From Mustelus asterias (taxonomy: Eukaryota), in NCBI RefSeq assembly GCF_964213995.1, contig NC_135803.1, forward strand, positions 126,852,001-126,916,000: a stretch of 64,000 bases of DNA, given 5' to 3'. How positions within the stretch are numbered: the stretch's first letter is position 1; every line of letters begins with the position of its first letter. This document shows positions 30,835 to 64,000 of the stretch, one piece after another. Made by a program: the position numbers and the translations under genes. Below the pieces are notes generated by a model. That model was not told the DNA's origin. It saw nothing but the letters and a program-made list of their open reading frames with translations, and ran no database searches.

Positions 30835-31399
30835 CTGGTGAAACTGACACATGCACACTGGCAAGTTGCCAAGTCACGATGCTGAACTGCAGCAGTGACC
30901 CCCAGGGTCAACTCTGTGTAGATAACTAAAAGTTACACCTGAAATTACGCCCCGATCCGATCATGTGCCCATTTTGCTAAACTGTCAATGTGCTGTCAGT
31001 GTACTGTCAATCAGTAATAAATGCAAACGTCCGAAAGACGTGTTGGTTAGGTGCATTGGTCATGTTAAATTCTCACTCAGTGTACCCGAACAGACGCCCG
31101 AGTGTGGCAACTGGGAGATCTTCACAGTAACTTTATTGCAGTGTTGATGTAAGCCTACTTGTGACACTAATAAACTTTTTAAAACAAGCATAAATCAGTT
31201 AAATAATCAGAACCAAACAAAGCACACCATACAATCTTACAATAAATTTGAAAATTGATCTTCCCATACACCGAACTATCATTCAAGCAGATTAAGTACA
31301 GCACAGCATATTTAAGAATATGAGAATGTGTTTTTTAAAAATCTTTTCAATGCTTAAAGTAACTCATCCTGGTTACAAAATGTATATTCTAAAGCGACA

Positions 31400-34300
31400 A
31401 CAAAATAAAATGACAAATACACTAGGGAGACTCCATGGATGAATCAAGACTTAAGGGAGCAACTAAAGATGAGGAAAAAGCATACATTTAGTACAAAGAC
31501 AACAGGAGAAGAGCATGATAGGAGAGAATACAAGCCAATCAGAAGTAAAAAAAAACGATCAGGAAAGAAAAGAGGAACCACAAAATTAGATTATCAAGGA
31601 ACATAAAACAATAAATAAAGTTTATTTATTAGTCATAAGTAGGCTTACATTAACACTACAATGAAATTACTGTGAAATTCACCTAGTCACCACACTTCGG
31701 CACCTGTTCGGGTCAATGCACCTAACCAGAGAGGAAACCGGAGCACCTGAGTAAACCCACACAGACACAGGGAGAAGGTGCAAACTCCTTACAGACAGTG
31801 ACCCAAGCTGGGAATTGAACCCAGGTCTCTGGCACTGTGAGGCAGCAGTGCTAACCACTGAGCCACCATGACATATAAAATATTTTGTAGGCACATCGAT
31901 AAAAAAGGAAAGCTGTGATGGGAGTAGGACCATTTCGGAAAGACTGGATAATACTTCAGGGAGCAATAGAGAGATGGCAGAATTATGAAATAATTATTTC
32001 ATTTTAGTATTTACCAGGAAGATAGAACAGGTAGACATAACATTGACCAATGAGATGAACAATGCGATAAATGCATTTAAAATTAAAAAGATGTATCATA
32101 AACTAAACAAACTCAAAGAGGATGACATTTTAAAGTTTATTTATTAGTGTCACAAGTAGGCTTACATTAACATTGCAATGAAGTTACTGTGAAAAGCCAC
32201 ACTCGGGCACCTGTTCGGGTATACTGAGGGCAAGTTTAGCATGGCCAATGAACCTAACCAGCACGTCTTTCGGACTGTGGGAGGAAACCAGAGCACCCGG
32301 AGGAAACAATTGCAGCCACAGGGAGAATGTGTAGACTCCGCCCAGACAGTGACAGGTAGGAAAAATAATTGAATCTTTACTGTAGGAAAGCATAGAAGAA
32401 CATTTAGAAATTATGAACATAATAATGATTAGTCATCATGGATTTTGAATAGGAAAGTCTTGCTTGACCAACTTTATTGAATATTTTGAAGATGAAATTC
32501 AACGTGGGCAAGTGCGAGGTCGTACACTTTGGAAAAAAGAATAGAGGCATGGACTATTTTCTAAACGGTGACAAAATTCATAATGCTAAAGTGCAAAGGG
32601 ACTTGGGAGTCCTAGTCCAGGATTCTCTAAAGGTAAACTTGCAGGTTGAGTCCGTAATTAGGAAAGCAAATGTAATGTTGTCATTTATCTCAAGAGGCTT
32701 GGAATACAAAAGCAGGGATGTACTTCTGAGGCTTTATAAAGCACTGGTTAGGCCCCATTTGGAGTACTGTGAGCAATTTTGGGCCCCACACCTCAGGAAG
32801 GACATACTGGCACTGGAGCGGGTCCAGCAGAGATTCACACGGATGATCCCAGGAATGGTAGGCCTGACATACGATGAACGTCTGAGGATCGTGGGATTAT
32901 ATTCATTGGAGTTTAGGAGGTTGAGGGGAGATCTGATAGAAACTTACAAGATAATGAACGGCTTAGATAGGATGGACGTAGGGAAGTTGTTTCCATTAAC
33001 AGGGGAGACTAGGACGCGGGGGCACAGCCTTAGAATAAAAGGGAGTCACTTTAGAACAGAGATGAGGAGAAATTTCTTCAGCCAGAGAGTGGTGGGTCTG
33101 TGGAATTCATTGCCACAGAGGGCTGTGGAGGCCGAGACGTTGAGCGTCTTCAAGACAGAAATTGATAAATTCTTGATTTCTCGAGGAATTAAGGGCTATG
33201 GGGAGAGAGCGGGTAAATGGAGTTGAAATCAACCATGATTGAATGGTGGAGTGGACTCGATGGGCCGAATGGCCTTACTTCCGCTCCTATGTCTTATGGT
33301 CTTATAACAGAGAGCATAGATGGTGGTAATGCTGTAGATGTGCTTTATCTAGATTTTCAAAAGGCCTTCGATAAGGTGGTCCATAATAGACTAATGAATA
33401 AAGTTAGAGAATGTGGAGTTCCAGACAAGTGGTAGAATGGATTGTTTTCTGACTTCAAGACAGAAAGCAGAAAGTGGAAGTAAAGGGTAGTTATTCAGAG
33501 TGGCAGAAGATTGGAAATGGTATTCCACAGGGATCAATATTGGGACCAGTGCCTTTCACAATTTACATTAACAATTTGGAATCAAAAATGCAACTTCTAA
33601 ATTTGCAGATGGCATCAACTTGGAGGGGCAGAATACTTAATATTTAGGAGAACTGTAGCAAGCTGGGTGAGACAGTGGTGTCATGGTAATGTCATTAGAA
33701 TAATAACACATAAACTTTGAGGGCATGGGTACAAATCCTACCGTGGCAGCTGGTAGAATTTCAATACAATCATTTTTTTAAAAATCTGGAATTGAAACCT
33801 AGTTTCAGTAATGGTGATCATGAAACTATCGTCCATTGTTATAATAACCCATCTAGTTCACTAATGTCTTTGAGGGAATGAAATCTACCATTCTTACCTT
33901 ATCAATCACTGAAAGTTGTGACATAGGTTAGCAAGGCCATAAAACAGCAAACCAAGCACGACGTTTTATTTCTAGGGGGACAGAACTGAAACGTGGGGAA
34001 ATTATGATAAACACACTTAGAGTACTGCAGCATTTCTGCTCATCATATTATAAAAAAGAAGCAATGAAGAGGGTGCGGAGAAGATTCACATGGATTAAAT
34101 GAGAAATGTGTGGGTATACATATCAGGATTCACAGGCTGGGTCTCGTTTCTCTCGAAAAAAGAAGACTGAGGGGGTAACCTAATAGAGGTCTTTAAAATG
34201 ATGAAAAGTTTTGATTGAGTGGATATAAAGAAAATATTTTCTCTTGATGGGGAAGAACACAACTAGAGGACATCAACAAAAGATAGTCACTAAGAAATTC

Positions 34301-43164: not shown

Positions 43165-44100
43165 TTAGAACAAAGGACTGAGGAGCAGGATATTCGGTCC
43201 TTCAAACCTGCTCTACCGTTTGACAAGACTATGCTCTGAACTCCACTTTCCTGTATTCCCCTATAACACAACTCACTTATCAAAAATCTAACTCAGGCTT
43301 GAATAAATTCGATGACCCAGCCCGCTCTGCTTTCTGGGTAAGATAATTCCACAGCCTAATGACTCTCAGAAAAGATTTCTTCTCATCTCCAACTTAAAAG
43401 GGAGACCTCTTATTTTTAAACTGTAGCCCCTAGTTCTAGACTCCCCACACAAGAGGGATGTCCTCTCAACATCTATTCTGTTAAGTCCCCTCGGGATGTT
43501 ATGTTTCAATATCATCTCTCATTTTTCTAAACTCCAATGGATATAGTTCCAAACTGTTTAACCTTTCTTCAGAAGGCCTTCATCCCAGGAATGAGGCACA
43601 TGAACCTTGACCAAACTGCTTCTAACAGTTATATCCTTTGTCAAATAAGGAGACCAAATGAGTACATAGTACTCCAGATGTAGTCTCACCAAGGCCCTGT
43701 ACAGCTGCAGCAGAACTTCCCTGTTATATTCCATTCCCCTTGTAATAAATACCAAATCCATTTGTAATAACTGCTCATTAAATTTTTGAGATTCACGTAC
43801 CAGGGCACTGAGGTCCCTTTGTACTTGCAGGTTTTGCAATCTCTCGACATTATAGTATATTGCTTTTCTATTCTTCCTGCCGAAGTGGACAAGTTCATAT
43901 TTTTCCACATTATACTACAGTTGCCAATTTTTGACCACTCACTAAACCTATTAATATCCCTTTGTAAGTTTTAACCTCTTCTTGACAACCTTCCTACCTA
44001 TTTTGGTATCATTGGCAAACTTAGTACCTTATGTTCGGCCCCTTTATCCAAGTTACTGGTACAGATTACAAATAGTTGAGGCCCAAACACGGACCCTTCT
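43165..44100 (-). mobile_element. Decayed CR1 LINE
   Basis: VHFGRKN...LLQLYRALVRLHLEYY motifs with frameshifts. Confidence 0.85.
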
Positions 44101-46017
44101 GGCACTCTTTATAGTTTTTGAAGGTTGTCACTTCCCCTATCTGTGTCGATTTTTCCCACACTTCAATGTTTCGTCTTTCCAATCAGGTTTCTTCTGTGCC
44201 ACAGCAAATCAAAATCACAAACATTTTCTGTAGCTTGACAGTAATGTATTATCCCTTCTCCTCTTTCCCTCTCCAGTCTTTGACACACAAGATCAGTCTC
44301 CAATGCATTTCCTTTGGTTTACAGCTCAGTGGAATTGGCCTCATTTAGCTGTCTAATCTTAGTCAGAACATCCCAACCATCAGTAGATACGGAATCAGCA
44401 TCCAGGTGCACACGAACAATACACAACTCTCCCTCTGCAGTTAATTAGGATTTCTATTTTCAATTTCTGGTTGTGAACCTTCTTTGATATTGATGATAAT
44501 GGATTTGTGAAATGTTAAACAATTGAAATTTAATGAGAAAATGCAGTTCTTTATTGTCAAGCTAAACATTTTGAAGTGATGATCTAGTGTTGAAAGCTTC
44601 TGTGAAGTCCAACCCGTCTTTCATATATACACTCCAAATTACAAGGGCAAAAAAATCATTTGAATTCTTGCAATGTAGGCTACGTTTCATTTGAAACCTA
44701 GCCAGCAGTTTGTTCCATTTATAACATACGTAATCTGAAACTTCAGTGATCCTTAGTGCCATCATGTGTACTGTTGATGTATTACAATGACCAAAATGTA
44801 CATTTTCTATTTAAAAGCCATTGAAAATAATGCTATTATTGCCTCTTTTATACTTTTCCATTTCACATTATAGACTAGGAGTACTGAAACCTAAAAAAAG
44901 AGCAGAATCAAATTTCATAAGAACTCTTGATAGACTGTAAAAAGCATTTGGAACAAAATTTCACTAAATAATTTCAACTCCGAAAAGTTGAAATTAATGT
45001 GGAAAGTGTAGTATAATGTATTTTGGATTTACAACTCTGGGAACTCGGTTCAAAATCACTTCCGATTTCTAAGAAGTATTTCTGAAAAGGTATTTTGTTA
45101 AATAAATTGGGCCATCTCACTCAAACTTTTAGTATGCAAAGGAGAATACAAGAAATGCCCCCCTATTAAGATATCCCGATACCAGTCACAAAATAGCTGA
45201 TGTGGAAAATAGAAAAATGTCACAAGTGGCGGCACGGTAGCACAGTCTTTAGTACTGCTGCCTCATAGCGCCAGGGACCTGGGTTTGATTCCCAGCTTAG
45301 GTCACTGTCTGTGTGGAGTCTGCATGTTGTCCCCAGGTTTCCTCCAGGTGCTCCAGTTTTCTGAGTCTGAAAGACGTGCTGGTTAGGTGCATTGGCCATG
45401 CTAAATTCTCCCTCAGTGTATCTGAACAGGTGCCGGACTGTGACGACTCGGGGATTTTCACAGTAATTTCACACGGTGTTAATGTAAGCCTACTTGTGAC
45501 ACTAATAAATAAACTTTAAACTTTATAGTTGGAGGGGCTCCCTTAAGGATGGCATGGAGGAACTTTCTTCAGCAAAAGTACATGAAATATCATTGTATCT
45601 CACAATGCTATACCTCATTTTTCTTGCCTCAGAGTCAAAGGTTCAAGTACCATTCCAGCAATGTGATCACTGTGATGCACCATTAAGGGTTCTGTCTTCT
45701 GGATAAGGTGTTAAAACTAAGGTTCTCTCAAATGACACAACAGACCCCATTGCATTCTTTAAGAATTGGCAGGGGAGTTCTCCTGATATTCTGGACTATA
45801 TATATATATATATCCCACAACCTGCAAAACTAAAAACAGATAATCTGATTACTAATGTTTGCAAGGAGCTTTAATTGGTGCAAATGAGCTACAATACATT
45901 CCTATATTCCAACAGTGACTGCACTTCTATTTCAGTATTTCATTGGCAGTAAAGAACTTTTGGACATCCTGAGGCTATGAAAGGTATGATACAAATGCAA
46001 GGTCCTTTCCAGTACAC

Positions 46018-46654
46018 TGTGAAGTGGGAAAAACATAAAGATGGGTACATAACACATAAAATGGCTGCCTGGCACATAAACAGTCACCTAGGAAAGAGAC
46101 ATTAAACAGGCACTGACTTTTAGTGCAGACAGCTACGTGACATTAAAACATGAAGGACAGTTATTTAAAGTTAAAGATGCAGGAATCAGATCCTGCAGGA
46201 GGCCAGCCAGGGCTTGAGGCAGTTTTTAGGATAAGGACCGATCTAGGACAATAAGGACTGATAGAGGTTAGCCACAAACGGGAACGGGAATACATAAATG
46301 CAGGAAAACCAATTACTGTATGAATAGACCGAAACTAAGTAATTGATAGGGAAAATGTACCCATTCCATGAAACAATGCGATGTTAAAAGCCAATGTCTG
46401 TATATGTCTGGCTGTAACGATGTGTTAAACTATCAATCCTACTCAGTTATAACAATGTGTTAAATGGCTAATGTCCGGGCTATCCATTGTCTGAAAAGTA
46501 TAAAAATGAGCCACTCCTATTGTATCATTGAGAGAAGGGAGCTGCCTAGTGTACTGAGGAGTGCCAGTGCCTTTTCTTCACGAAGCTTCGTTAAATAAAA
46601 CTGTATTGTTGAAACCTTCAAGTCTGACTCCGAAGTGGCAATTTTCCCATAACA
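46018..46654 (+). mobile_element. Candidate solo LTR
   Basis: TGT...AACA ends with imperfect terminal inverted repeat (TGGGAAAA/TTTTCCCA), TATAAAA at 46499, AATAAA at 46594, short U3-like direct repeats; no clean TSD. Confidence 0.6.
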
Positions 46655-46993
46655 ACTGGATGGTAAAAGTGGGAAATGTTTCATAACCCATCATTAATCT
46701 TGATGAGCAACAAGTAAAAGAAAAATATTTTTGAATAACAAAAGCAGCAGCAATCCTTTGAAACAAAAGGTTATCAAATAAAATTCTGCATCATCATAGT
46801 TACAAGACAGACTTTATAATCACTGACATCTGTTATTGCAAATATACTAGCCAAACAATGTGGTTTGAAAATATAGCATTCATTTTCAAATTATTTTGAG
46901 AGTTTTCAGTAGTTTCCATAAAACTCACATTTAAGAACATAAGTATCCAATGAAAACGGTTTCCAAGTTATTTTCCAGTTTCAATGTTAAGAG

Positions 46994-47512
46994 TCATACA
47001 TTTTGATCTCTATCGTCTGGCAGCATGACCTTCACTTCCCCTTTCATTATAACCTTCGTAGTTTCTTTGACAACACATGAAACAGCAATCCAAGCTATGG
47101 ACCTCCTTATTTTAATAACATCCGCAATTGCTGAAACCTGCTCTCCAATATACAAAGGTGCTAGAAAATGGAGTTCCTGAGACAGAAGAGCACATCCAGG
47201 CATTTTGGTTCCCAGAACAGCAGACATTAATCCACAAACCAGTACACCGTGCACAATCGGCTTTCCAAACTTGCTGGCTTTGGCAAAATCTTCACTGAGA
47301 TGTAGTGGGTTCGTATCACCTGTTAACTCTGAAAAGGCAAATACATCACCTTGGGTAAAAGCTTTGGTAAGTTCAGCTCTCTCGCCAACCTGAAGATGGA
47401 CAGACCGAAGAAAGGCATTTTGTAGCATCATGATGCTGCCTGTGCGCCGCTGTCTCATTTTTAATGGGTTTTGAAAGACACGAAGAATAACGCTTTGAGC
47501 ACCAAAAGGCAT
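46994..47512 (-). CDS. HTD2: Mitochondrial hydroxyacyl-thioester (3-hydroxyacyl-ACP) dehydratase type 2, 172 aa, intronless
   Basis: MaoC/hotdog motif [12 protein letters not shown]...FGKPIVHG, close to human HTD2; first ATG at 47512 (the track's 47542 start is TTG); Arg-rich N-terminus with no acidic residue before E44; directly downstream of the RPP14 stop. Confidence 0.95.
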
Positions 47513-47587
47513 TTCCTCAAATTTTACAGTCCAGTTTTCCAAGAAGAGTAGATTATGTCACTTCAAACACCTGAATTGTCAGATATC

Positions 47588-47644
47588 TCAGTTCAACACA
47601 AGTTCTCTACTGTTGCCCGATAGTGCAAGAAGAAATGGGGAGAC
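47588..47644 (-). CDS. RPP14: RPP14 coding exon 5 (stop; exon continues into HTD2)
   Basis: VSPFLLALSGNSRELVLN* versus human VSPFLLALSGNSRELVLD; acceptor tgtatag. Confidence 0.96.
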   Translation of the reverse strand, partial: VSPFLLALSGNSRELVLN

Positions 47645-48529
47645 CTATACAATAGAGATAAAAATGTAATTAATTTTACTAATGAAACAAGCAAGCTGGC
47701 TACTTCAGAATCAGTTTGACACATTTGAAGATCAAGAATACAGCCAAAAATTAGCTTCCTTGTTCCCATCTAGGATTACAGTTTAATGGGTTTTGACCCA
47801 AATTACAGAACTGGGAGGCACAAAGTTAAAATCAACATCTAAGGGCTTCCATATTAATGCACCTTTCTGCCAGAACTGCACCAGTGTTTGATCCAAACAG
47901 ATGTACCTCCCAACAAAAGTGTTCCCTCAATTTCCTCCTGTTCAGTTCACAGACATGGTGCTTGGTCCTGTTATCTGTGAATCACAGGATGCTGCTGGGT
48001 GGGCTGTCACAATCTTACCTCAACCTAGAAACCAGTTTATTCTCTACAGTACAATGTACTAAGAAGAGCAGCGGGGAAAGTCTAGGTCATTGCTTTGAGA
48101 GCAATAAGATCGATTTGTCGAGGTAGGCCTGGTCAGAGAGAGAGAGACATGGAGATGAGAGAGCTAAAGCAAATAATATCAACTATCATAGAACAGGGAA
48201 AATTATAGGTAGATGAATTAAATTTCAAATGGAAGAATCCGAGGGTCCAGGATGGCGGCAAACAAATGAAATGAATGAAGAGACAGAAGCCATAGAACAA
48301 GTGAAAAAACAATCCAAGGAGCCCAGATATATTTCAGATTTTACACCTACTAAAAATTACTTCCCATGACGACTTTGAAATAAAAATGAGAGACATTGGA
48401 TATTTTAATTCATGATTGTTTGAAATGCTGAAAAAGTTGGGTTCTTGTTTTGTTTAGTGAAATGATTCTGTAGTGCTCAATAAGGTTCTGTTTCAGTAAT
48501 CACTAAAGACAAACTATCATACAAATATG

Positions 48530-49510
48530 AACATATGAATTAGGAGTAGGCCACGTGCCCCTTCGAGCTTGCTTTATCTAGGGATGCCTTCATTATGAGA
48601 TCATCAATTAATCCGATCTCATTGCACAATACCAGGTCTAATACAGTCTGCTCTCTGCTTGGCTCCAGAATGTGCTATTCTAAGAAACTATCACAAAAAC
48701 ATTGTTTGAAATCACCAACGCTAACTTTCCCCATCTGATTTTTCCAGTCTACATATAGATTAAAATCCCTCATGATTATCGCCCCACCTTTTTGACAAGC
48801 TCCAATTATTCTTTATATTCTGTCCTACTGTGTAGTTACAATTAGGAATCACATACACCACTTCCCCAAGTGACTTCTTGCCTTGATTATTCCTCATCTC
48901 AACTCAAACTGCTTCTGCATCCTGGTTTCCGAATTCCTCTCGAACGCGCTAATACTATCAATTAACAGAGCCACCACTCCACCTTTTCCAACTTCCTGTC
49001 CTTCCTAAATGTAATGCACACTTCAATATTCAGGTCCCCAATCTCTGTCACCCTGTAGCCATGTCTCTAATGGGCGTCAGATCGTACTTATTAATTTCTA
49101 TTTGCGCAATCAGTTAATTTCTTTTGTTTTGAACGCTACGTGCATTTAGATACAAAGTCTCAAATTTTCTCCTTTTATTATTTTTGTACTATCTGGCCTT
49201 ATCTGTTGATTTAATCTTAGATTTGAACTCTGTCACTTCCTCTCATGGTCTGTTAATCATTTCCCATATTAGTACAATTCTCTCATCTTGTCTCTACACT
49301 TTGGTTTACCACATCTTCCCGAATTTGATCCCTTTCCCCCACCATTTTGTTCAAACCCTCTCTACTTCCCTAGTTATGCGACTCACTATATCACCAGCCC
49401 CAGCATGGCTCAGCTATAGACCGTCCCAATGGTACAGATTCTACTTTCCCCAATATTCCTGCCAGTGCCCCATGAAACCGAACCTACCTCTCCAACACCA
49501 GTCTTTTCAT
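48530..49510 (-). mobile_element. Decayed CR1-like LINE fragments
   Basis: Similar to the LINE-like stretch at 13000-13100, CR1-type 3' end at 48530; no intact ORF. Confidence 0.55.
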
Positions 49511-49795
49511 GCCAATATCATGCAGACATACATGGACTGGATCCTCCCCCTCCAGCCCTCAGCTCCCAATGGATAACTTCCATCTCCCTGCTTAGGCCCC
49601 AGGATGAGACTTAGTACTTGCAGTTAAATGTTAAAAACAGTTTAAGACTTTTAGAAATATATCAGCTCACCAAACTCACACTCTAATGAGGTCGCTCAAC
49701 CATTAGATAACAAGAAATACTGCAGTCTTCAACTTTGTGATTGAAGAGTAACTTGAAAAGATGAACTATCATTTTATAGCAAACACATACAATAC

Positions 49796-49874
49796 CTGTG
49801 TCACTCTGAAAGCACACTTCTGATTTTGATATGATCCCAGAAGGGTCAATGCACTCCACAGCTTCACAAGGCCA
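49796..49874 (-). CDS. RPP14: RPP14 coding exon 4
   Basis: (S)GLVKLWSALTLLGSYQNQKCAFRVTQ; 79 nt, ag/gt. Confidence 0.96.
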
Positions 49875-51383
49875 CTGTAAACAGAAATATTGTCAACAAA
49901 CCTTTTAAGAGTTATGCTTTGACATTTATGTTAGTGTTGCTAGTTTATAACATCTTGAATATACGTAGCAACTTTAAAAACAGAACATTATTCCCAAGTA
50001 CTTCAGAGACAGAATCAAGCAAAAATGCAAAACAGGAGCTATTTTCAGCAACGACCTGAAATTTTGCTAAAGAGTTGAGTTTTAACAAAGGACTTAAAGA
50101 GAGGGAGGTGTAAAGTTGGGAGATTTAGCAAGGGAATTCTAGAGCATAGGCCAGGATTGGGGTGGGTGGAGAATGCAAAAGAGGCAGGAGTCATAGGATC
50201 AGACAGTTCATGCAGTCTGGACAAAAGGCTAAAGAAAGTTACAGAGAAGGGAAAAGTCACAACAGAATTTAAACAGAAGGATAATAATTTTAAATTTTGG
50301 GACGTTTGGTGACCAGGAGTCAATTTAGGTTGTGGAAGACATGGAATATGTTTGAGCACAGCTGGGTGCTGGAAAGGATACTGGCGGCAGTTTTGGCTGA
50401 GCTGAACTTTGCTGTGGATAGAGAATGGAGCATTGGAATAATTGAGGCTGGAGGTGACAAAGGGATAGATCAAGGCTTTTGTCTTTTGGATTAGACATTA
50501 AATCAAGACCTCATCCGCCTGCTCACGTGGGTGCAAAAGATTCCATGATACTATGTTGAAGAGGAGGAAGGGAGCTATTCCTTGTCCTGGTCAACATTAA
50601 CCACATGGACTACAACTGTACAAGATGACAGATCACTACCAACTTCTCAAGGGCAATTAGGGATGGGCATTGAATGCTAGCCTTGCCAGCAACATCCACA
50701 ACCCAAGATTATATTTCAAAAAAAATCAGCAGATGAGTTGAGACGGGGACAGAAGTGGGAGGCAGCAGAGAGAGAGATTAGTTGGTTTTTATGATGGAGA
50801 CACCATTTTTCTTCGCTCATGGGATGGGGTTGTCACTGGCTAGGCCAGCATTTATACCGATACTTAATTGCCTTTGAGAAGGTGATGATGAGCTGCCTTC
50901 TTAAACTGCAGCGGGCAATATGGTGTCGGTACAACCACCGTGCTGTTAGGAAGGGAGTTCCAAGATTTTGACCCAGCAACAGCGAAGGAACATCAATATA
51001 GTTCCAAGTCAGGGTAGTGTGTGGTTTGGAGGGGATTTGTAGGTGGTGGTGCTTGCATGCATCCACTGCCCTTATCCTTCTAGGTGGCAGATGTTGTGGG
51101 TTTGGAAGGTGCTGTTGAGGGGCCTTGGTAAGTTGCTGCAATGTATCTTATAGATGGTACACACTGCTGCCATTGTACATCAATGGTGGAGGGGGTAAAT
51201 GTTTAAGGTGCAGGATGGGGTGCCAATGAAGAGGGCCAGGCCGCAGCGGGCCCCAGGGATGTTGATGCAGTTTAGCTCCAGGAACTTACTTTCTGTATTA
51301 TGGCCCTGTAATATTTAAATGGCTCTTTTTTTTTAATATATGGTTTATATTTTTGATAAATACATTATAAAAAGTAAAAGGTA

Positions 51384-53970
51384 ATATGGGCTGAAGTGAG
51401 AAATAGGAAAGGAGCGGTCACGTTGTTAGGAGTTTACTATAGGCCCCCAAATAGTAATAGAGATGTGGAGGAAGAAATTGCTAAGCAGATTATGGATATG
51501 TGTGGGGGTCACAGGGTAGTTGTCATGGGGGACTTTAACTTTCCAAATATTGATTGGAACCTTTGTAGGTCAAACAGTTCGGATGGGGCAGTTTTTGTGC
51601 AGTGTGTGCAGGAGGGTTTCCTGACACAATATGTGGATAGGCCGACAAGAGGTGAGGCCACATTGGATTTCGTACTGGGGAATGAACCAGACCAAGTGTT
51701 AGATTTGGTTGTGGGAGAGCACTTTGGAGATAGTGACCACAATTCGGTGTCTTTTGTTATTGCAATGGAGAGGGATAGGGCCGTACGGCAGGGCAAGGTT
51801 TACAATTGGGGGAAGAGGTAATTATGATGCGATTAGGCAAGAATTAGGGGGCATAAGATGGGAACAGAAACTGTCAGGGAAAGGCACTAATGAAAAGTGG
51901 AACTTTTTCAAGGAACAAATACTGCGTGTCCTTGATAGGTATGTCCCTGTCAGGCAGGGAGGAAATGGCCGAGTGAGGGAACCATGGTTCACGAAAGAGG
52001 TGGAATGTCTTGTGAAAAGGAAGAGGGAAGCTTATGTAGGGATGAGGAAACAAGGTTCAGATGGCTCGATTGAGGGTTACAAGTTAGCAAGGAATGAGCG
52101 GAAAAAGGGGCTTAGGAGAGCTAGGAGGGGGCATGAGAAGTCCTTGGCGGGTCGGATCAAGGAAAACCCCCAAGGCATTTTACTCTTATGTGAGGAATAA
52201 AAGAATGACCAGGGTGAGGTTAGGGCCGGTCAAGGACAGTAGTGGGAACTTGTGTATGGAGTCAGTAGAGATAGGCGAGGTGATGAATGAATACTTTTCT
52301 TCAGTGTTCACCAAGGAGAGGGGCCATGTTTTTGAGGAAGAGGAGGTGTTACAGGCTAATAGGCTGGAGGAAATAGATGTTTGGAGGGAGGATGTCCTGG
52401 CAGTTTTGAATAAACTGAAGGTCGATAAGTCCCCTGGGCCTGATGAAATGTATCCTAGGATTCTTTGGGAGGCAAGGGATGAGATTGCAGAGCCTTTGGC
52501 TTTGATCTTTGGGTCCTCACTGTCCACGGGGATGGTGTCAGAGGACTGGAGAGTGGCGAATGTTGTTCCTCTGTTTAAGAAAGGGAATAGAAATGACCCT
52601 GGTAATTATAGACCGGTTAGTCTTACTTTGGTGGTTGGTAAATTGATGGAAAAGGTCCTTAGGGATGGGATTTACGACCATTTAGAAAGATGCGGATTAA
52701 TCCAGGATAGTCAGCACGGATTCGTGAAGGACAAGTCGTGCCTCACAAATTTGATTGAATTTTTTGAGGAGGTAACTACGTGTGTTGATGAAGGTAGGGC
52801 AGTTGATGTCATATACATGGATTTTAGTAAGGCAAGGTCCCCCATGGTCGGCTTATGATGAAAGTAAGGAGGTGTGGGATAGAAGGAAAGTTGGCCGATT
52901 GGATAGGTAACTGGCTATCTGATCGAATACAGAGGGTGGTGGTGGATGGAAAATTTTTGGACTGGAGGCAGGTTGCTAGCGGAGTGCCACAGGGATCAGT
53001 GCTTGGTCCTCTGCTCTTTGTGATTTTTATTAATGACTTAGAGGAGGGGGCTGAAGGGTGGATCAGTAAATTTGCTGATGACACCAAGATTGGTGGAGTA
53101 GTGGATGAGGTGGAGGGCTGTTGTAGGCTGCAAAGAGACATAGATCGGATGCAAAGCTGGGCTGAAAAATGGCAAATGGAGTTTAACCCTGATAAATGTG
53201 AGGTGATTCATTTTGGTAGGACTAATTTAAATGTGAATTACAGGGTCAAAGGTAGGGTTCTGAAGACTGTGGAGGAACAGAGAGATCTTGGGGTCCATAT
53301 GCACAGATCTCTAAAGGTTGCCACTCAAGTGGATAGATCTGTGAAGGCGGCCTATAGTGCGTTAGCTTTTATTAACAGGGGGTTGGAGTTTAAGAGCCGT
53401 GGGGTTATGCTGCAACTGTACAGGACCTTGGTGAGACCACATTTGGAATATTGTGTGCAGTTCTGGTCATCTCACTATAAGAAGGATGTGGAAGCGCTGG
53501 AAAGAGTGCAGAGGAGATTTACCAGGATGCTGCCTGGTTTGGAGGGTAGGTCTTATGAGGAAAGGTTGAGGGAGCTAGGGCTGTTCTCTCTGGAGCAGAG
53601 GAGGCTGAGGGGAGACTTAATAGAGGTTTATAAAATGATGAAGGGGATAGATAGAGTGAACGTTCAAAGACTATTTCCTCGGGTGGATGGAGCTATTACA
53701 AGGGGGCATAACTATAGGGTTCATGGTGGGAGATATAGGAAGGATATCAGAGGTAGGTTCTTTACGCAGAGAGTGGTTGGGGTGTGGAATGGACTGCCTG
53801 CAGTGATAGTGGAGTCAGACACTTTAGGAACATTTAAGCGGTTATTGGATAGGCACATGGAGCACACCAGGATGATTGGGAGTGGGATAGCTTGATCTTG
53901 GTTTCAGATAAAGCTCGGCACAACATCGTGGGCTGAAGGGCCTGTTCTGTGCTGTACTGTTCTATGTTCT
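51384..53970 (+). mobile_element. Young 2.6-kb 5'-truncated CR1 LINE (APE + RT ORF2, three frameshifts)
   Basis: GVYYRPP, MGDFN, SDH endonuclease motifs; NYRPVSL, GVPQGSVLGP, FADD RT motifs; TSD AAAAGGTA at 51376-51383 and 53971-53978. Confidence 0.97.
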
Positions 53971-54053
53971 AAAAGGTACTGCCATTGTTTTTTAATTGTT
54001 TAAATCACCATACTGTATTATAAAGTGCTTTCAAATGGTTACGATGCACTCAC

Positions 54054-54130
54054 CTGCTTTGTATTCTCAGTATCGCTGTCAATGTTTCTTCTTCAAATTT
54101 CAATACATCAACAGGCAAGGCAGCTCCAAT
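54054..54130 (-). CDS. RPP14: RPP14 coding exon 3
   Basis: IGAALPVDVLKFEEETLTAILRIQS versus human VDAALPLDILTYEEKTLSAILRICS; 77 nt, ag/gt. Confidence 0.95.
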
Positions 54131-54435
54131 CTGCAAAATCAACATTGTCAGAACGTTAACCTTTAGAGTATGTCAGGTTGGAATTTCAAAGGTATATTCA
54201 AACACATTTTCCAAAGGTGAAAGAGTAAAAATGGCTACTTGCCCTCAAAGTGATTGATAAATTCCACATTAGACTTCTTTGTGCTATGTACTGAAAATGC
54301 AATAAATAAGCACTGGACAGATGATATAGTACAAATAGAGGTTGATTGTTCGTCCTCCAACCTCAAGACGTTTTAAAACATACAATTTGACTTTTGCTTG
54401 CATTTTTTGAAACAGCAGGCAAATTACCACCGCTT

Positions 54436-54733
54436 GCACAGTGACACAGTGGCTAATGCTGCTGTCGGACAGCTCCAGGGACCCGGGTTGAATTCCTGCC
54501 TCGGGTGACTGTCTGTGTGGAGTTTGCATGTTCTCCCCGTGTCTGTGTGGGTTTCCTCCAGTTTCCTCCCACACTCCAAAGATGTGCGGGTTAGGTTGAC
54601 TGACTATGTTAAATTGCTCCTTAGTGTCAGGGGGACTAACAGGGTAAATATGGGGATAGGGCCTGAGTGAGATTCTTGTTGGTGCAGGCTTAATGGGCCA
54701 AATGGCCTCCTTCAGCACTGTAGGGATTTTATG
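54436..54733 (+). mobile_element. V-SINE (HE1-like), CR1-type tail
   Basis: Same family as 3723-4064, opposite strand. Confidence 0.85.
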
Positions 54734-56169
54734 AGTAGTACCACAGTAGCGTGGATGGATAGATGTAGAGGTGATTGCTATGGCCTTATTTCCGCATGTT
54801 AGGTGAGGAAAGCCCCCATTGGGACCATCGGTGTTGTGCTTTTCTTTGTTTTTTGTTAGTTATTCCGGGTCTAAGAAATCCTGTGCTTATCCTATGGTGG
54901 TGCAGACAAACTAAACTTCTTTATCTTGCCATTGGTTCAATTAAATTTTTGTCTCTGATGGACTGAGACAGAGTTTCTAAGTTTTCTCCATGGCCTTAGC
55001 TTTGATGAAAGTCTATCTCCCTGCTTGTAAAGCACAATTTGAAAGAAATGCCCATGTCAGTGTGGTTATCAACTTGCAGTCTGTTTTATCAGCTATAGTT
55101 TTATGCACTATTTCGTGGATTACCACGATTCCTTCACAAAGCCCACTGCTGAAAGGACTTTCAACTGCGGTATGAACACAGCGTTCATCTTTTCATACGT
55201 CTCTGAACTCAATATTGGCTAATTCCCTTCTATTATTAGTCAAACATTTGCTGGTGCCCCAAGCTCTTATACATTGCTCCATGATTTTGTCTATGATAAA
55301 CCTTTTGTCCTTGCTGCGTATTACTGAGGAAAGCTTTACCTGGCTGCCAAGTCTACAAAATATAGAATGAAAATAATTGTCATTGTCCCTTTAGAGCCAT
55401 GGCAACTACTTCATTAAAGCCATGTGTTAATGGAAGGTTTACTATCAAACCTGGTGGCATTTTCCAATTAATTTTACACATTTCACACTTCGCACTAATC
55501 TCTTCCATTCGGCGTACATATTAATCGTCAGCCAGCTGTATCTTTTAGCAGGATTTTTAATCAACTGGCTCTCCTTCTCAGAGAAGGAAATACCAGTTAG
55601 AACCAGGAACCTGACCAAAATGAAACATATTGGCACAATGCAGCAATTTAAACGTTAATCCAGGGATTCTCAAATTAAATTGTCATCTTTTATATAATCT
55701 GTTGAAGTCTATGATATAACTCTTCATAGAATGACCTTAAGTTTCTGACTTCAACTTCAGAGCATGAACTACACCTTCACCCCATTTTTATTTTATTTCT
55801 TCTCATCTTATTCTTCCATTTTTATTACTTTATATTCTTATTTTTATTTCTCCACTTCTGAAATCTCGCTTCCATCTTGCCTTCCCAACTCCCCCTCCAG
55901 GGCCAACTGCCACATTCCTCAGGTTTTCGGCCACGAAAACTTGGTAAAGTCGGATATGAAGCGAGTAGCACGATCCACATTGCCTCTGCGCTGGTTCCCC
56001 CTTTATCAAGGCACGAAAATGGATGGGTTAGGGACTGTGTCCGAAACAGGCGCGACGTCATGCATTTAAATTGACTTAATGGCCTGCACGCCCAACCGTA
56101 CCTTTTTTAGGGGGGGGGGTCCACTGCCACTCTGCTTGAGATTGGTTTGGGGGGGGGGGGTGGAGGGAG

Positions 56170-57010
56170 AGGGGGGCTCCGCTGCCACTCTGCCCGCGGT
56201 CGGTGGAGGGGGGCTCCGCTGCCACTCTGCCCACGGTCGGTGGAGGGGGAGGGGGGCTCCGCTGCCACTCTGCCCACGGTCGGTGGAGGGGGGCTCCGCT
56301 GCCACTCTGCCCACGGTCGGTGGAGGGGGGCTCCGCTGCCACTCTGCCCACGGTCGGTGGAGGGGGGCTCCGCTGCCACTCTGCCCACGGTCGGTGGAGG
56401 GGGGCTCCGCTGCCACTCTGCCCACGGTCGGTGGAGGGGGGCTCCGCTGCCACTCTGCCCACGGTCGGTGGAGGGGGGCTCCGCTGCCACTCTGCCCACG
56501 GTCGGTGGAGGGGGAGGGGGGCTCCGCTGCCACTCTGCCCACGGTCGGTGGAGGGGGAGGGGGGCTCCGCTGCCACTCTGCCCACGGTCGGTGGAGGGGG
56601 AGGGGGGCTCCGCTGCCACTCTGCCCACGGTCGGTGGAGGGGGAGGGGGGCTCCGCTGCCACTCTGCCCACGGTCGGTGGAGGGGGAGGGGGGCTCCGCT
56701 GCCACTCTGCCCACGGTCGGTGGAGGGGGAGGGGGGCTCCGCTGCCACTCTGCCCACGGTCGGTGGAGGGGGAGGGGGGCTCCGCTGCCACTCTGCCCAC
56801 GGTCGGTGGAGGGGGAGGGGGGCTCCGCTGCCACTCTGCCCACGGTCGGTGGAGGGGGAGGGGGGCTCCGCTGCCACTCTGCCCACGGTCGGTGGAGGGG
56901 GAGGGGGGCTCCGCTGCCACTCTGCCCACGGTCGGTGGAGGGGGGAGGGTGGGCTCCGCTGCCACTCTGCCCGCGGTCGGTGGAGGGGAAGGGTGGGCTC
57001 CGCTGCCAAT
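56170..57010. repeat. G-rich minisatellite, ~21 copies of a 37/43-bp unit, inside a GC-rich element (~55980-57375)
   Basis: Unit GGA(GGGGGA)GGGGGGCTCCGCTGCCACTCTGCCCACGGTCGGT; CTCCGCTGCC recurs at 37- or 43-nt spacing (44-45 nt for the last two degenerate units) from 56177 to 56998. Confidence 0.97.
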
Positions 57011-57399
57011 CTGGGGAGGGGCCCGTGATTGGTCTGGCTGGCAGGGACGTGGGGGGATAAAGTAATGTTGTTGGGTGGAGAAATGTCTGTGGGGACCAGG
57101 GGGAGGCATTATAGGCCCGAGAGAGATGTGGCAGGGGAATAACTATCATTTTTCTTTCTTCGCATGTGCAGTTGGAGGCGCCAATTGGAGCTGCAGGGTT
57201 ACAGGCGCGTTAAGCCCCACTCACAGGCTTGTGCAGCACGATTCGGAATCGCTGATATTTTTGTAGACAGAGTGTGTATGGGGGCACTTGAGAACGGGTC
57301 TAAAAGTCGGATCTGAAACACTCCCAGTTTCAAGTCCGCCCAGCACTTCGAATCAAAATGATAAAATAGGGCCCCCCATCTCTTAATGGACACTCGTCG

Positions 57400-57613
57400 C
57401 ATCTTTCTCAGCCTTTATCATCACTATTTACATCCTTTTGTCCAATTACAGACCCCCTCCTCGCACCCTCAGTATTTGTCTTTAGCTCTGACGAAGGATC
57501 GTCCTGATTTGAAACACTGGCTCTATTCTCTCACCACAGAAGCTGTCAGATCTGCTGAGTTTTTCCAGCACTTGGTTTTTGTTTCAGATTCCAGCATCCG
57601 CAGTATTTTGCTT
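57400..57613 (+). mobile_element. Second Penelope-derived short repeat with degenerate hammerhead-like motif
   Basis: CTGACGA-AGGATC...GATTT-GAAAC at 57488-57515; stems I and III imperfect. Confidence 0.5.
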
Positions 57614-58891
57614 CCAGTTTCTGAAATTTGTTAAAGACTGGCCATGCCTTATGGGCATTCAACACACCACCTTTCGTGTTAATTTCACTGAAGACCTCTA
57701 GAACAGGGGTACCCAAACTGTGGGTCACACCCCTTAGGAGGTTATGAGCTCTGAGGCCATAATGACAGCAATGAAGCAGAGACTTAAAGTCTTGGGAGTG
57801 GCTTCGAGGCCACTCCTACAATTCAAAAAACAGAAAACACATTCATGCAATTTCTTAACAGGCTTTTGATGCAGACTGACTCAAAGCCTCATAATTCTTA
57901 GTATCTTGGTGATTTCTACCCCTCCTTTCGCCAGTCACTTAAGTTCTCTTCACTATGACCACTGTATCTCATGTATGAGAATACAGAGTGACATTAAAAA
58001 TGAAAAAGCTTCTGCTACTGCATTTTCTTCACCTGCTGTGCTTAATTGTTCAAACTTTCAGTCACTTTGTATGTATGGAAATTATGAACAGATCACAATG
58101 TTCTCCTCTTGATTATTTATGCTGATTTGCACTCGTTTCCATTGGTTTTTACATCCTAACATACCATTGAATCATAGAATAGTCATGGTGCAGATCATTT
58201 GGCCCAAAATGCCCTTTCAGTTCTCTGCAAGAGCAACTCAGTTAGCCTTACTCCTCTGCCTTTTCCCATCAAGCTGTATTTTTTCCCCTACTGAGCCTTA
58301 TCCAATTTTCTTTTGAAAGTTGATTGAATCTGCCTCTGCCACAGGCACTGTATTCCAGATCCTACTATTTGCTGTGTAAAACAGATTCTCCTTATGTCAC
58401 TCAATATTGGTTCTTTTGCCAATCATTTTAAATTTAGGATCCCCTGGTTGATTATTCTTCTGTCAATGTAGTTTCTATCTACTTTGTCCAAATGTCTCAT
58501 AATTTTGAACACTTCAACTAACTCTTCTCGAAGGAAAATAACTCCTAGTTCTCAAATACATCTGTATAAATGAAGTCCTTCACCACTAGAGCCATTCTCA
58601 GCCATTGCCACAGAGCAACGCCATCAGTGCCGGTTCAATTCCCGTACCAGCTGAGGTTTTCATGAAGGCCCACCTTCTCAACCTTGCCTCTCACCTGAGG
58701 TGTGCTGATGCTCAGGTTAAATACCACCAGTCAGCTCTCCCCCTCAAAAGGGGAGAACAGCCTATGGTCATCTGGGAGACTATGGCGACTTTTTCTCATA
58801 GATCTTTTCTGCACCATCTCTCAAGCTTTCACATTACTCTTGAAGTTTGGAGTCCAGAATTGGGCACAATAATCCAAATGAGGCTAATAAT

Positions 58892-59357
58892 ATTGTAAGA
58901 AATCTCACAACACCAGGTTAAAGTCCAACAGGTTTATTCGGTAGCAAAAGCCACTAGCTTCTGGAGCGCTGCTCCTTCGTCAGGTACGTGGGAGTTCTGT
59001 TCACAGACAGGGTATATAAAGACAAACTCAATTTACAAAATAATGGTTGGAATGCGAGTCTTTATAGGTAATCAAGTCTTAAAGGTACAGACAATGTGAG
59101 TGGAGTGCACGTTAAGCACAGGTTAAAGAGATGTGTATTGTCTCCAGACAGGACAGTTAGTGAGATTTTGCAAGCCCAGGCAAGTCGTGGGGCTTACAGA
59201 TAGTGTGACATGAACCCAAGATCCCGGTTGAGGCTGTCCTCATGTGTGCAGAACGTGGCTATCAGTCTCTGCTCAGCGACTCTGCGTTGTTGAACCCTGG
59301 TGTTGTGAGACTTCTTACTGTGTTTACCCCAGTCCAACGCCGGCATCTCCACATCAG
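58892..59357. mobile_element. Penelope-like element (fold-back) retaining the GIY-YIG endonuclease C-terminus
   Basis: Minus 59292->59194 encodes QQRRVAEQRLIATFCTHEDSLNRDLGFMSHYL*, the typical PLE E..LI..F.T...GLN.D ending; TSD GGCTAATAAT at 58882-58891 and 59358-59367. Confidence 0.9.
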
Positions 59358-59789
59358 GGCTAATAATGTTCCCAAGGAATATTGGTGTAAATTGCTAGAT
59401 TGCATGCATTTGGACAAAACTGGGGATATATATAGCATTTCACTAACTCCGAGTTAACTTATTGAAAACGTTTGGGTGCCTGCCCCGTTTTACCATCAAG
59501 GAGAAATTCCTAACTAATCCAACCACAATGCCAGTGTTGTCATGTGTTCAGCAAATCAAGTTTTCAGTGAGTTCATTTTTTGTGTCACTTCAAAATCATC
59601 TTTCCCATTCGAATTTTAAATGGAATAATTTATCCCTCTTGTTGTTAAACGGCTGCTGCATTCTGCGCGCTGTGCAAGTTCCCCCCTTACAGTATCAGCT
59701 GCCGAGAGCACGGTGCTCGGATAGCGGGAACGGCCTGGAAGGGAAGCGGCAGCACCTGTCAGCGCCACCCCGAGTTACTGCACTCTTAC

Positions 59790-59880
59790 CTCTCCGTGCA
59801 GATCCTTCAGCGCCGAAACGATCAGCTGTTTAAAGTGGGCGGCGTTCAGCCTGAGCCCAGGCCTCCTTTCCTCAAATTCA
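59790..59880 (-). CDS. RPP14: RPP14 coding exon 2
   Basis: (L)EFEERRPGLRLNAAHFKQLIVSALKDLHGE versus human EFQDCGVGLNAAQFKQLLISAVKDLFGE; 91 nt, ag/gt. Confidence 0.95.
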
Positions 59881-59980
59881 CTGTTTAAAAAAGAGAAAAG
59901 AGAGCCTGGAGTGAGTGAGTGAGCGGAGCAGGAGGGACTCGACAGAACCGCTCGGCACCGGGAATCTGCTTTACACTCAC

Positions 59981-60063
59981 AGGCCGACCTTCAGGTAGTG
60001 ATAGTCGCAGGGGTTTCTGGAAACGAGCCGTTCATAGGCCGCGTCCTCGCCCGGGTGGATCAT
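59981..60063 (-). CDS. RPP14: RPP14 coding exon 1 (ribonuclease P protein subunit p14)
   Basis: MIHPGEDAAYERLVSRNPCDYHYLKVG versus human MPAPAATYERVVYKNPSEYHYMKVC; donor GTGAGT; an in-frame upstream ATG at 60159 makes the start slightly uncertain. Confidence 0.92.
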
Positions 60064-60109
60064 GCCGGTAAGCGGCGACTCGCTGACAGGCAGCTCGAGG
60101 CCTCGACCA

Positions 60110-60320
60110 ACGGCGGGCGGCTCACTTCCGGTCACCGTCACCAGGCAACCGCAGGCCATGTGACCATCACTTCCGACCCCCGTTGGCCGTCACATGCGCA
60201 GCCCGGCGTCAACGGCGCATGCGCTGTCCCTCTGCGGGGTTGTCCTCTTGGGAAACGCTGATGGCCAAGCGCATGGGAAGTATTTGTTTCCGGTGTGAGT
60301 GGGGGGTGTGAAGCGGAAAT
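60110..60320. promoter_or_regulatory. RPP14/HTD2 CpG-island promoter with ETS/GABP and NRF1 motifs
   Basis: CACTTCCG at 60123-60130 and 60168-60175; GCGCATGCGC at 60215-60224; CATGCGCA at 60193-60200. Confidence 0.75.
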
Positions 60321-60480
60321 GATTCTAGTATCAACGTTGCTGGATGTAATCACCTTCATTTATTAACCGAATGTTTTACAGAGGGGCAGCACTCTGGATG
60401 GGATTGGGGGGGGGGGGGATAGTTGAAAGTGGAGTGCCACGAGGGGGCCCAGGGGCAGGTGTATGATGGCGGTGTCGGTG

Positions 60481-60950
60481 TAGTGGCGGATTAACCATTA
60501 GGCTGAGTAGGCTTAGGCCTAGGGGCCCGGACAGGAGGGGGGCCCTGAGAGCAAAAAAATCACTAACTGTTCAGGTGAGCGTTCATTTTCGGCACTGAAG
60601 AGGATCAAAATCTATTTGCGCTCAACAATGAGCGATGAGAAACTTAGTCATCTGGCACTCATGCACATTGAATCAGACACGCTTCGATCTGTTGATTTAC
60701 ATGCTGTTATCGACACTTTTGTAAACCAAAAAGCACAAGCTTTTTAAAGTACAAATGTAAAGAAAATGAAAAATAAATGAATAAAAGGGCTGTAATTGAT
60801 TCATATAACTTTATATTATACATGTAGTACATTATACATAGTACAACAATATGTTATCTAACGTCACTTTATTCTATTCATCGAAGGGTGGGTCAGGGGG
60901 CCTTACTAAAGCTCAGCCTTGGTGTCCGGGTGGTAGTTAATCTGCCACTT
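60481..60950 (+). mobile_element. Internally deleted hAT DNA transposon
   Basis: TIR AGTGGCGGATTAAC / GTTAATCTGCCACT (1 mismatch); 60559-60747 encodes ITNCSGERSFSALKRIKIYLRSTMSDEKLSHLALMHIE...*, the hAT C-terminal dimerisation motif. Confidence 0.9.
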
Positions 60951-61565
60951 TGGGGGGGGGGGGGGTGGCTGGTTTCAACCGGTTAAACCAGCAGCTTCTA
61001 ACATCAGAACGGAAAAAGCAAGTGATGAGCAGATGTTTTGCTGAGAGTTACTTGGGTTAGGGTGCGACAAACGTGACCACCAATGGGCAATGGCCAATCA
61101 ACCTAACCAGTTCCAAATGGGCGGCACAGTGGTTAGCACAGCGCTAGGGACCCGGGTTTGATTCCCAACTTGGGTCATTGTGTGGAGTTTGCACGTTCTC
61201 CATGTGTCTGCATGAGTTTTCTCCGGGTGCTCTGGTTTCCTCCCACAGTCTGAAAGACGTGCTGGTTAGCTGTAATGGCCATACTAAATTCTCCCTCAAT
61301 GTACCTGAACAGGCGCCAGAGTGTGACAACTCGGGGATTTTCACAGTAACTTCATTGCAGTGTTAATGTAAGCCTACTTGTGACACTAATAAACTAAATA
61401 TAGAGTCCCTACACTGCAGAGGGAAGCCATTTGGCCCATGTAGTCTGCACTGACTCTTACCCAGGCTTACCTTATAACTCCACGGATTTACCCTGCTAAT
61501 CCCCCATACCTATATATCTTGGGACACTAATGGGCAATGGCCATTCAACCTAACCAGTTCCAACT

Positions 61566-61891
61566 GGGGCAGCACGGTTGGACAGTGGTTAGCACTGTTG
61601 TCTCATAGCGCCAGGGACACGGGTTCAATTCCGATCTCAGGTGACTTTGTGGAGTTTGCACATTCTCCCCGTGTCTGCGTGGGTTTTCTCTGGGTGCTAA
61701 GGTTTCCTCCCACAGTCCAAAGATGTGCAGGTTAGGTTGATTGGCCATGTTAAATTGACCCTTAGTGTCAGGAGATTATCAAGGTAAATATGGGGGGTGG
61801 GGGTTACAGGGATAGGGTCTGGGTGGGAGTTTTGTTGGTGCAGGCTTGATGGGCCAAATGGCTGCATTCTGCACTGTAGGGATTCTGTGAT
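61566..61891 (+). mobile_element. V-SINE (HE1-like), CR1-type tail; inverted SINE fragment at ~61400-61558
   Basis: Same family as 3723-4064. Confidence 0.85.
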
Positions 61892-63194
61892 TAAAAATGA
61901 CAAGGGCCAATGATTAAATATATAGAACTTTAGGCATTTTCTGACATTTGTTAAATCCTTTGAATATCTGAAATATAAATAACAAAATACATTGTTGGTA
62001 ATATCTAATGTTTAACATGTATTCTGTCAGAGAAACTGGCCAAGAATATTTAGGAAATATTAGTATTGGGGAAAACCCTCCATTGGTTGGAGTCATACCT
62101 GGCACAAAGGAAGATAGTTGTTGTAGCCTCTCCACCATCCATAAGGCACAAATCGGGAGTATAATGGAATACTTGCCTGGATGAGTGAGGCTCCAAGAAC
62201 ACCCAAGACGTTCGACACCATCTAGGACAAAGCAGCCCACTTGATTGCGACCCCTTCCACAAACAATTCAATTCCTCCACCACCGATGAACAGTGGCAGC
62301 CATGTGCACCATTTACAAGATGCGCTACAGGAACTCGCCAAGCTTCCTTAAGCAGCACCTTCCAAATCCATGACCATTACCATCTACAAGGACAAGAGCA
62401 GCAAATACCAGGCAACACACTACCTGAAGGTTCCCCTCCAAGTCATCCTGACTTGGAAATATATCACTGTTCCTTCACTGTCACTGAGTCAAAATTCTGG
62501 AACTCCCTTCCTAACAGTACTGTGGGTGTACCTACATCACTGCAGCAGTTCAAGAAGGATGCTGACCACCACCTTCTGTAGGGCAACTAGGGATGGGCAA
62601 TGAATACTGGCTTTGCCAGGAACACCGATATCCCATAAATACATTTCAGAAAAGTACGATTCTGGGTCTGAGCAATGAGAGGCTACAGGTCAAAGCATTC
62701 CTTCCTACTGAACTTTCTCATCTGTTTTGCCTTTACAATTCATATCTGCAGCTTTACTAAATTACTTTGACATTATTTATTCCCCATACTTAGTTGTCCT
62801 GAAGTCATTAAGAGTTAAATCTGTAGTGTGGGAATAGAGCCACATGAAGTGTAGACTGGAAGTCATTATTGAATCTATTTTGAGAAGGGAATTATTGAAC
62901 TAGCAAAAGCACATCTGTTTTAGAAAGACTTTAGTTGAAGAACTTAGTCAAAATAGAATACCACCCCGCCTTCTCAAACCAGGAACCTGCCTCATTCATC
63001 AAGTTTCAGCGCAAACAACATATACAAGGATGCTTAGCATAACAGACTTCTGAAATAATGCACAACAGGTGGTCCTTCAAAGATGTAATAGAATGCAAAT
63101 TTAAATGAACTTTAAAATATGGGATGAATGATCCAATATTAGCTCGTGTAAGGTAATACAGCATGCCTCTTCACACCTGTAATTCTCTTCATAC

Positions 63195-63915: not shown

Positions 63916-64000
63916 ATACCAAGATCTCACTACACTATTGGGGAAGGTATTGAGTGACAATGGACAAGATGCTTCACATTGAAATGGGGAACACAGTAAG

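Follow-up and report, generated by a model that had tools for sequence, protein, structure and literature searches.

Background

By what route does a shark make HTD2, a mitochondrial enzyme of fatty-acid synthesis, when the open reading frame (ORF) for this protein lies close behind the stop codon of RPP14, an RNase P subunit that serves in tRNA processing, seemingly in the same transcript? The question is raised by a stretch of 64,000 nt of the Mustelus asterias genome (contig NC_135803.1; hereafter the window), in which an earlier note had recognised the bicistronic arrangement of other vertebrates. The human RPP14/HsHTD2 locus was reportedly described as bicistronic, and as kept from fish to humans, by Autio et al. 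in 2008. The human bicistron encodes products of 124 and 168 aa and is stated to have been conserved for more than 400 million years (PMC4705651, PMC5932603, PMC11837024, PMC8509007); the novelty of an ancient linkage, as presented in the earlier note, was therefore overstated, such an age being already in print. In the rat, translation of HTD2 is supported by ribosome footprints and peptides (PMC4419486, PMC6825209). How the human bicistron is translated had not been investigated, according to a 2016 review (PMC4705651). The ATG of human RPP14 lies in exon 2, the inclusion of which is cut 11- to 23-fold by loss of TRNAU1AP or PRPF39 (PMC13408128, published in 2026), and the exon-2-skipped RNA is predicted in the same paper to encode HTD2. 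The notion that one human mRNA encodes both proteins thus holds as regards the bicistron itself, but it is incomplete, for an HTD2-only RNA also arises there from skipping of the AUG exon (PMC13408128).

The two genes of the window

The RPP14-HTD2 unit of the window comprises the following features.

59800 to 60300, no strand: CpG island (GC 0.60, CpG observed/expected 0.95), the putative promoter common to RPP14 and HTD2
59981 to 60133, minus strand: RPP14 exon 1 as seen, with leader, AUG at 60063 and 83 coding nt (60063-59981)
59881 to 59980, minus strand: RPP14 intron 1, 100 nt, GT-AG
59790 to 59880, minus strand: RPP14 exon 2, 91 nt, both ends present in contigs, with a TGA at its start in a shifted frame
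54054 to 54130, minus strand: RPP14 exon 3, 77 nt, with an internal AUG of weak context that opens a 2-codon ORF
49796 to 49874, minus strand: RPP14 exon 4, 79 nt
47588 to 47644, minus strand: coding part of RPP14 exon 5, with AG acceptor, 18 codons and TGA at 47590-47588
47513 to 47587, minus strand: spacer, exactly 75 nt, with no ATG and no scanned poly(A) hexamer
46994 to 47512, minus strand: HTD2 ORF, 172 aa, intronless, a single stop-free frame
46620 to 46993, minus strand: probable 3' UTR, minimum extent, from contigs by arithmetic

RPP14, a protein of 128 aa, is encoded on the minus strand by five coding exons (387 nt) separated by four GT-AG introns. The extent of exon 1 is taken from a contig of run X20, colinear with the genome from 60133 to 59981 and without a loose 5' end. 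Human RPP14 (6ahr_H) is matched in order by exon 1 (residues 2-24), exon 2 (31-54), exon 3 (56-78) and exon 4 (81-106, E 4e-9). The protein model spliced from all five exons does not differ from P0122, named by NCBI as RPP14 of Mustelus asterias, which in turn matches residues 4-127 of 6ahr_H with E 4e-52. Pfam PF01900 is above cut-off for the whole protein, single exons giving a weak match to it in one of four cases (exon 4). As for HTD2, its ORF matches the human protein (3ir3) with E 4e-50 and the MaoC family PF01575 with 64.5 bits (gathering cut-off 27); the motif D66-x-N68-P69-x-H71 is invariant in all 22 aligned sequences, D66 and H71 presumably being the catalytic residues, and the N-terminus is basic (6 R/K and no D/E over 36 aa). 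Domain and motif are those of the MaoC/hydratase-2 hot-dog dehydratases (PF01575; 3ir3, 1iq6), and the same activity is predicted for the shark protein. Judged by sequence, the upstream ORF is an intact orthologue of RPP14, and the downstream ORF is an intact orthologue of HTD2, on the same strand and close behind the RPP14 stop. The coordinates given in the earlier note were reproduced: the last RPP14 exon ends with TGA at 47588, and an intact, intronless HTD2 begins 75 nt further on.

The CpG island around the first exon is the sole such island in the unit. A scan with consensus patterns placed ETS-like motifs at 60175 and 60130 and an NRF1-like motif at 60224, with no TATA motif in this promoter. 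Within RPP14 intron 2 a GC-rich 43-nt minisatellite (56159-57013, about 21 copies, 96% matches) forms the GC peak at 56-57 kb and imitates a CpG island in the GC profile. Fragments that I take to be LINE-like, with reverse transcriptase and endonuclease, lie at 51400-53950, 1355-1864 and 32468-33226, one of them within RPP14 intron 3. Three isoform models of shark RPP14 (P0124, P0126, P0128) carry extra segments of 41 and 9 residues where exons 3 and 4 meet, or a changed C-terminus; the 41-residue insert looks, in my estimation, like exonised repeat sequence.

Relatives, neighbours and age of the pair

When 21 HTD2 proteins are placed in a tree, that of the window groups with 13 others from sharks, rays and the chimaera Callorhinchus (support 100/100), apart from 7 bony vertebrates. 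All 7 bony-vertebrate entries have two residues following K-M/I-P that are missing from the chondrichthyan ones. Downstream of HTD2, exons of PXK map on the minus strand from 21095 to 4229, and its first exon presumably lies at about 30500-30700, minus strand, in a CpG island at 30000-31000. Beside this island sits a 31-nt tandem repeat of five copies (30676-30834), and a perfect 91-nt tandem duplication in a PXK intron (17461-17640) reflects either a recent duplication or an assembly artefact. On human chromosome 3, ABHD6, RPP14, HTD2 and PXK are given together at one locus in the text of PMC8385949. Shark and human share the same orthologues in the same order, with HTD2 placed in the RPP14 unit's 3' part and PXK next, and the product sizes are alike (128 and 172 aa in the shark, against the human figures above). 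The identification of the locus as the shark orthologue of vertebrate RPP14-HTD2 is therefore borne out by the place of HTD2 in the chondrichthyan clade, by PXK as the next gene on the same strand and by contig extents that fit a shared RNA (see below). Likewise, an origin of the linkage no later than the jawed-vertebrate ancestor, as the earlier note had proposed, is supported by the window taken together with papers on human and with three fused gene models of teleosts.

The latter belong to a set of 15 longer RPP14 matches, among which RPP14 is fused to a MaoC domain in three (P0133, P0134 and P0140), all of them teleost models and none from a shark; such fusions imply that both genes are adjacent there. 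Other public models fuse RPP14 to ABHD6 in three bats (P0129-P0131) and to PXK in birds and a turtle (P0138, P0139, P0141-P0143). Fused models of this kind are likely annotation errors or read-through at a compact locus. The earlier worry that automated annotation could drop one of the two ORFs did not materialise, both proteins being in the public protein collection (RPP14 as P0122, HTD2 as P0001). Among 14 named chondrichthyan HTD2 entries, 4 (a catshark and three batoids) are called 'ribonuclease P protein subunit p14 isoform X1' by NCBI, and the Callorhinchus entry has a UniRef name that begins likewise; these would be gene models sharing exons with RPP14. Caution is hence due with fish annotations, several of which mislabel HTD2 as an RPP14 isoform or fuse both.

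No jawless or invertebrate species is named among the best 120 of 269 HTD2 matches, and 266 RPP14 pattern matches in metagenome contigs gave no confirmed locus. In a limited collection of literature, where absence does not imply absence from print, no paper was found naming RPP14 with cartilaginous fish, and none of the papers on RPP14 plus HTD2, among the matches listed, is on fish by its title.

The spacer

The spacer contains no AUG (47587-47513), as previously noted; since 133 of 593 local 75-mers are also without ATG, this is no signal by itself. The accompanying remark that no convincing splice acceptor is present holds loosely, the four AGs that would open an exon within the spacer having 8/17 pyrimidines versus 9-14/17 at real acceptors, while the lack of a CpG promoter near HTD2 is plain (no CpG in the spacer, and an observed/expected ratio of 0.05 over the 500 nt before the HTD2 ATG). 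Both ORFs are in one frame and are separated by three in-frame TGA, namely the RPP14 stop and two in the spacer, by which a read-through or fusion protein of RPP14 and HTD2 is ruled out. The fold of the spacer region is not unusual (z -1.45; 17 of 200 shuffles fold equally well), and Rfam returned no match across 44000-64000.

Read from a GTG at 47570 (47513-47570, minus strand), one frame of the spacer is similar to an N-terminal extension of 16 aa that several HTD2 entries of batoids possess. The likeness score was reached by 0 of 2000 shuffles for P0015, by 3 of 2000 for P0009 and by 28-89 of 2000 for P0016-P0018. As found in the window, the frame does not run in phase with HTD2 and is interrupted by two stops, and four further batoid entries (P0010, P0011, P0013, P0014) begin at the same Met as the shark protein. 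The frame may be a decayed older HTD2 start; if the annotated batoid starts are right, an AUG-free spacer would not be universal.

A shared transcription unit

Four of the 22 listed runs (X1, X18, X20 and X22) were aligned, to 59400-60950 only, and are regarded as RNA on account of their spliced joints, not of their run records. The joint between exons 1 and 2 is found in three of the four. Beyond exon 2, also in three of the four, a loose end is identical with the opening 30 nt of exon 3 (54101-54130), and the contigs continue past exon 2 for 1181 nt (X18), 1181 nt (X20) and 993 nt (X1). Counted from exon 2, 213 nt are taken up by exons 3-5 and 807 nt lead to the HTD2 stop; the extents thus fit RPP14, the spacer, HTD2 and a UTR of 186-374 nt, a fit by arithmetic in which the letters were read as far as the first 30 nt of exon 3. 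The share of words from 46000-47700 is 0.89 in X18, 0.76 in X20 and 0.32 in X1. A contig, it should be said, is not a single molecule, its depth is a poor measure and true starts are invisible in it; the want of cover over 60010-60213 in X18 may be due to filtering or assembly trimming. From the contig extents and the annotation taken together, it is very probable that RPP14 and HTD2 belong to one shared transcription unit.

The contigs of X18 and X20 both stop 1181 nt past exon 2, at about 46620, just upstream of which there is no scanned poly(A) hexamer, the first AATAAA being at 44555. None of the 13 hexamers scanned occurs in RPP14 exon 5 or in the spacer; an ATTAAA at 47465, within HTD2, could give rise to some RPP14-only RNA.

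Splicing variation at intron 1

In three runs the contigs follow the genome without a break from 60100-60133 across the RPP14 AUG. The AUG seems, accordingly, to lie in the first exon and not in a skippable internal cassette, though a very short upstream exon may exist. A joint of the human skipping type is absent from the four runs, and exon 2 has no loose end on its 5' side. Skipping of exons 2-4 was also considered: the RPP14 AUG stays in place in all seven combinations, with no ORF left shorter than 37 codons. This is where shark and human differ, the human RPP14 AUG lying in exon 2 and that of the shark in a CpG-island exon followed by a first intron of 100 nt, with no upstream exon in the three covering runs.

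The splice donors of RPP14, scored from base frequencies, reach 2.0 for exon 1 (CCT/GTGAGT, weak), 6.5 for exon 2, 8.1 for exon 3 and 1.3 for exon 4. Within exon 1 a further candidate donor appears in one of the runs:

59983 to 59991, minus strand: alternative donor AAG/GTCGGC, 8 nt ahead of the main one, the exon then ending with base 59989

Its joint to exon 2 (59989/59880, GT-AG) is seen in one of the four runs, X22, at a depth of 31 versus 82 for the canonical joint. This run comes from a related organism (H) and was aligned at 85% likeness; there, the contig of exon 1 stops precisely at 59989, as expected of a branch. The joint occurs in a single contig, the shorter arm of which has 24 letters, with the flag 'between: not known', and is absent from both runs of organism G and from the run of organism A. 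The donor scores just 0.2, and it is supplied by K-V codons that are the same in all 7 shark RPP14 entries; as these codons are fixed by the protein, the donor may be cryptic. When exon 2 is joined to it, a TGA follows right after codon 25, the frame being computed on the sequence of the window.

Intron 1 is retained in contigs of two of the four runs (X18 and X22) and spliced in three. When it is kept, the RPP14 frame of the window stops after 28 codons, within the donor. In X22 another contig reads from exon 2 into intron 2 (59400-59819) at a depth of 51, being either unfinished RNA or an early-ending form; in view of this contig, the retention of intron 1 in the same run (depth 26) may be unfinished RNA too. 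After the stop of either truncated ORF, a single weak AUG, with an ORF of 2 codons, precedes the AUG of HTD2.

Possible routes to HTD2

The reading that I favour, with a probability of about 0.42 for the model as a whole, combines the shared unit with reinitiation on intron-1 variants. One CpG-island promoter would drive one transcription unit, the last exon of which would hold the end of RPP14, the 75-nt spacer and the whole HTD2 ORF. The fully spliced RNA would give RPP14, and HTD2 would come mainly from RNAs with an altered intron 1, in which either the -8 donor is used or the intron is kept. In these, an upstream ORF (uORF) of 25 or 28 codons would replace the RPP14 ORF of 128 codons; the 40S subunit would then resume scanning, pass the weak 2-codon AUG of exon 3 and start at the HTD2 AUG, 376-475 nt further on. 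Variation at intron 1 in the shark would be the counterpart of skipping of the AUG exon in human. Reinitiation after short uORFs is documented in mammals, where permissive uORFs usually have fewer than 30 codons and a long ORF is seldom followed by reinitiation (PMC5972666); after the 128 codons of RPP14 it should accordingly be infrequent. The shark candidate shares with such cases a uORF of fewer than 30 codons placed several hundred nt before the main AUG, 25-28 codons being near the upper limit; it differs in that splicing would create the uORF, out of the cut-short beginning of a real protein. As in the TRNAU1AP/PRPF39 switch (PMC13408128), the choice of splicing at the AUG exon would decide on RPP14 while the alternative RNA keeps HTD2. 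However, skipping of the human cassette removes the AUG, whereas the shifted donor or retained intron of the shark candidate keeps it and truncates the ORF, so that reinitiation or leaky scanning is still needed. Moreover, the early stops lie before three junctions; should they lead to decay, as they may, the variants would merely tune RPP14.

Leaky scanning is nearly as likely as reinitiation on intron-1 variants. According to this explanation, which deserves serious, if still tentative, consideration, HTD2 is translated from the fully spliced bicistronic mRNA, and the intron-1 variants are either noise or targets of decay that do no more than tune RPP14. Just three AUGs precede HTD2 on the canonical RNA: that of RPP14 lacks a G at +4, the other two lack a purine at -3, and the AUG of HTD2 has a G at -3. 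The canonical joint is also the deepest in X22 and the sole spliced form in X20 and X1, and leaky scanning and/or reinitiation were called likely for human RPP14/HsHTD2 in the review cited above (PMC4705651). On the other hand, the RPP14 AUG does have its purine at -3, and synthetic human bicistronic mRNAs give about 1000 times less protein from the downstream ORF, a very low output (PMC11751868). Nor are out-of-frame AUGs depleted in the RPP14 coding sequence (2 observed, 2.5 expected, P 0.50 by synonymous shuffling; P 0.22-0.50 across three shuffles; no internal Met in RPP14), so the statistics give no sign of selection for scanning.

Two other routes would dispense with the RPP14 AUG altogether. 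An unseen splice could skip it, joining straight to exon 2 either a donor GAA/GTGAGC at 60126 or a short upstream exon. The site at 60126 scores 2.4, against 2.0 for the real donor of exon 1, and leaves just 8 nt up to the longest 5' end observed (60133), a stretch too short to show up in a contig; skipping of the AUG is, after all, what human cells do (PMC13408128). Yet the four runs contain no such joint, exon 2 is devoid of a loose 5' end and the site coincides with an ETS-like promoter motif, all of which makes this route improbable. More improbable still is a separate monocistronic HTD2 RNA, arising from a non-CpG promoter in intron 4 or from a spacer acceptor such as the one at 47570, with most RPP14 RNA ending early. 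In its favour, the AGs of the spacer are just slightly poorer in pyrimidines than the exon-3 acceptor, the ATTAAA at 47465 is available and the spacer is conserved enough to match the N-termini of ray HTD2 proteins; but the contigs run unbroken for 993-1181 nt past exon 2 in three runs, where a common branch at exon 5 or the spacer would tend to break them, and there is no CpG promoter near HTD2.

Reinitiation on intron-1 variants can be extended into an evolutionary proposal, one that I consider doubtful as it stands. Sharks would lack the skippable AUG exon of mammals and would switch between RPP14 and HTD2 at intron 1, where use of the -8 donor or retention would create a uORF of 25-28 codons that licenses reinitiation. 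The weak donor of the AUG exon would have been kept as a control point since the jawed-vertebrate ancestor, possibly governed by the same U1-linked factors (PRPF39, TRNAU1AP), and the human cassette would be a later rewiring.

Conclusions

To sum up, the arrangement is mostly what was to be expected, the shark locus moving a known vertebrate linkage one branch deeper in a way already implicit in public annotation. Translation of both ORFs has been demonstrated in mammals, while the shark locus is known from DNA and RNA contigs. Its value lies in the route to HTD2 and not in the arrangement itself. Sharks may choose between RPP14 and HTD2 by a splicing step unlike that of human; and since the shark gene seems to be without the human cassette, it provides a natural test of whether a splice switch is needed for HTD2 or whether the full bicistronic mRNA is enough.
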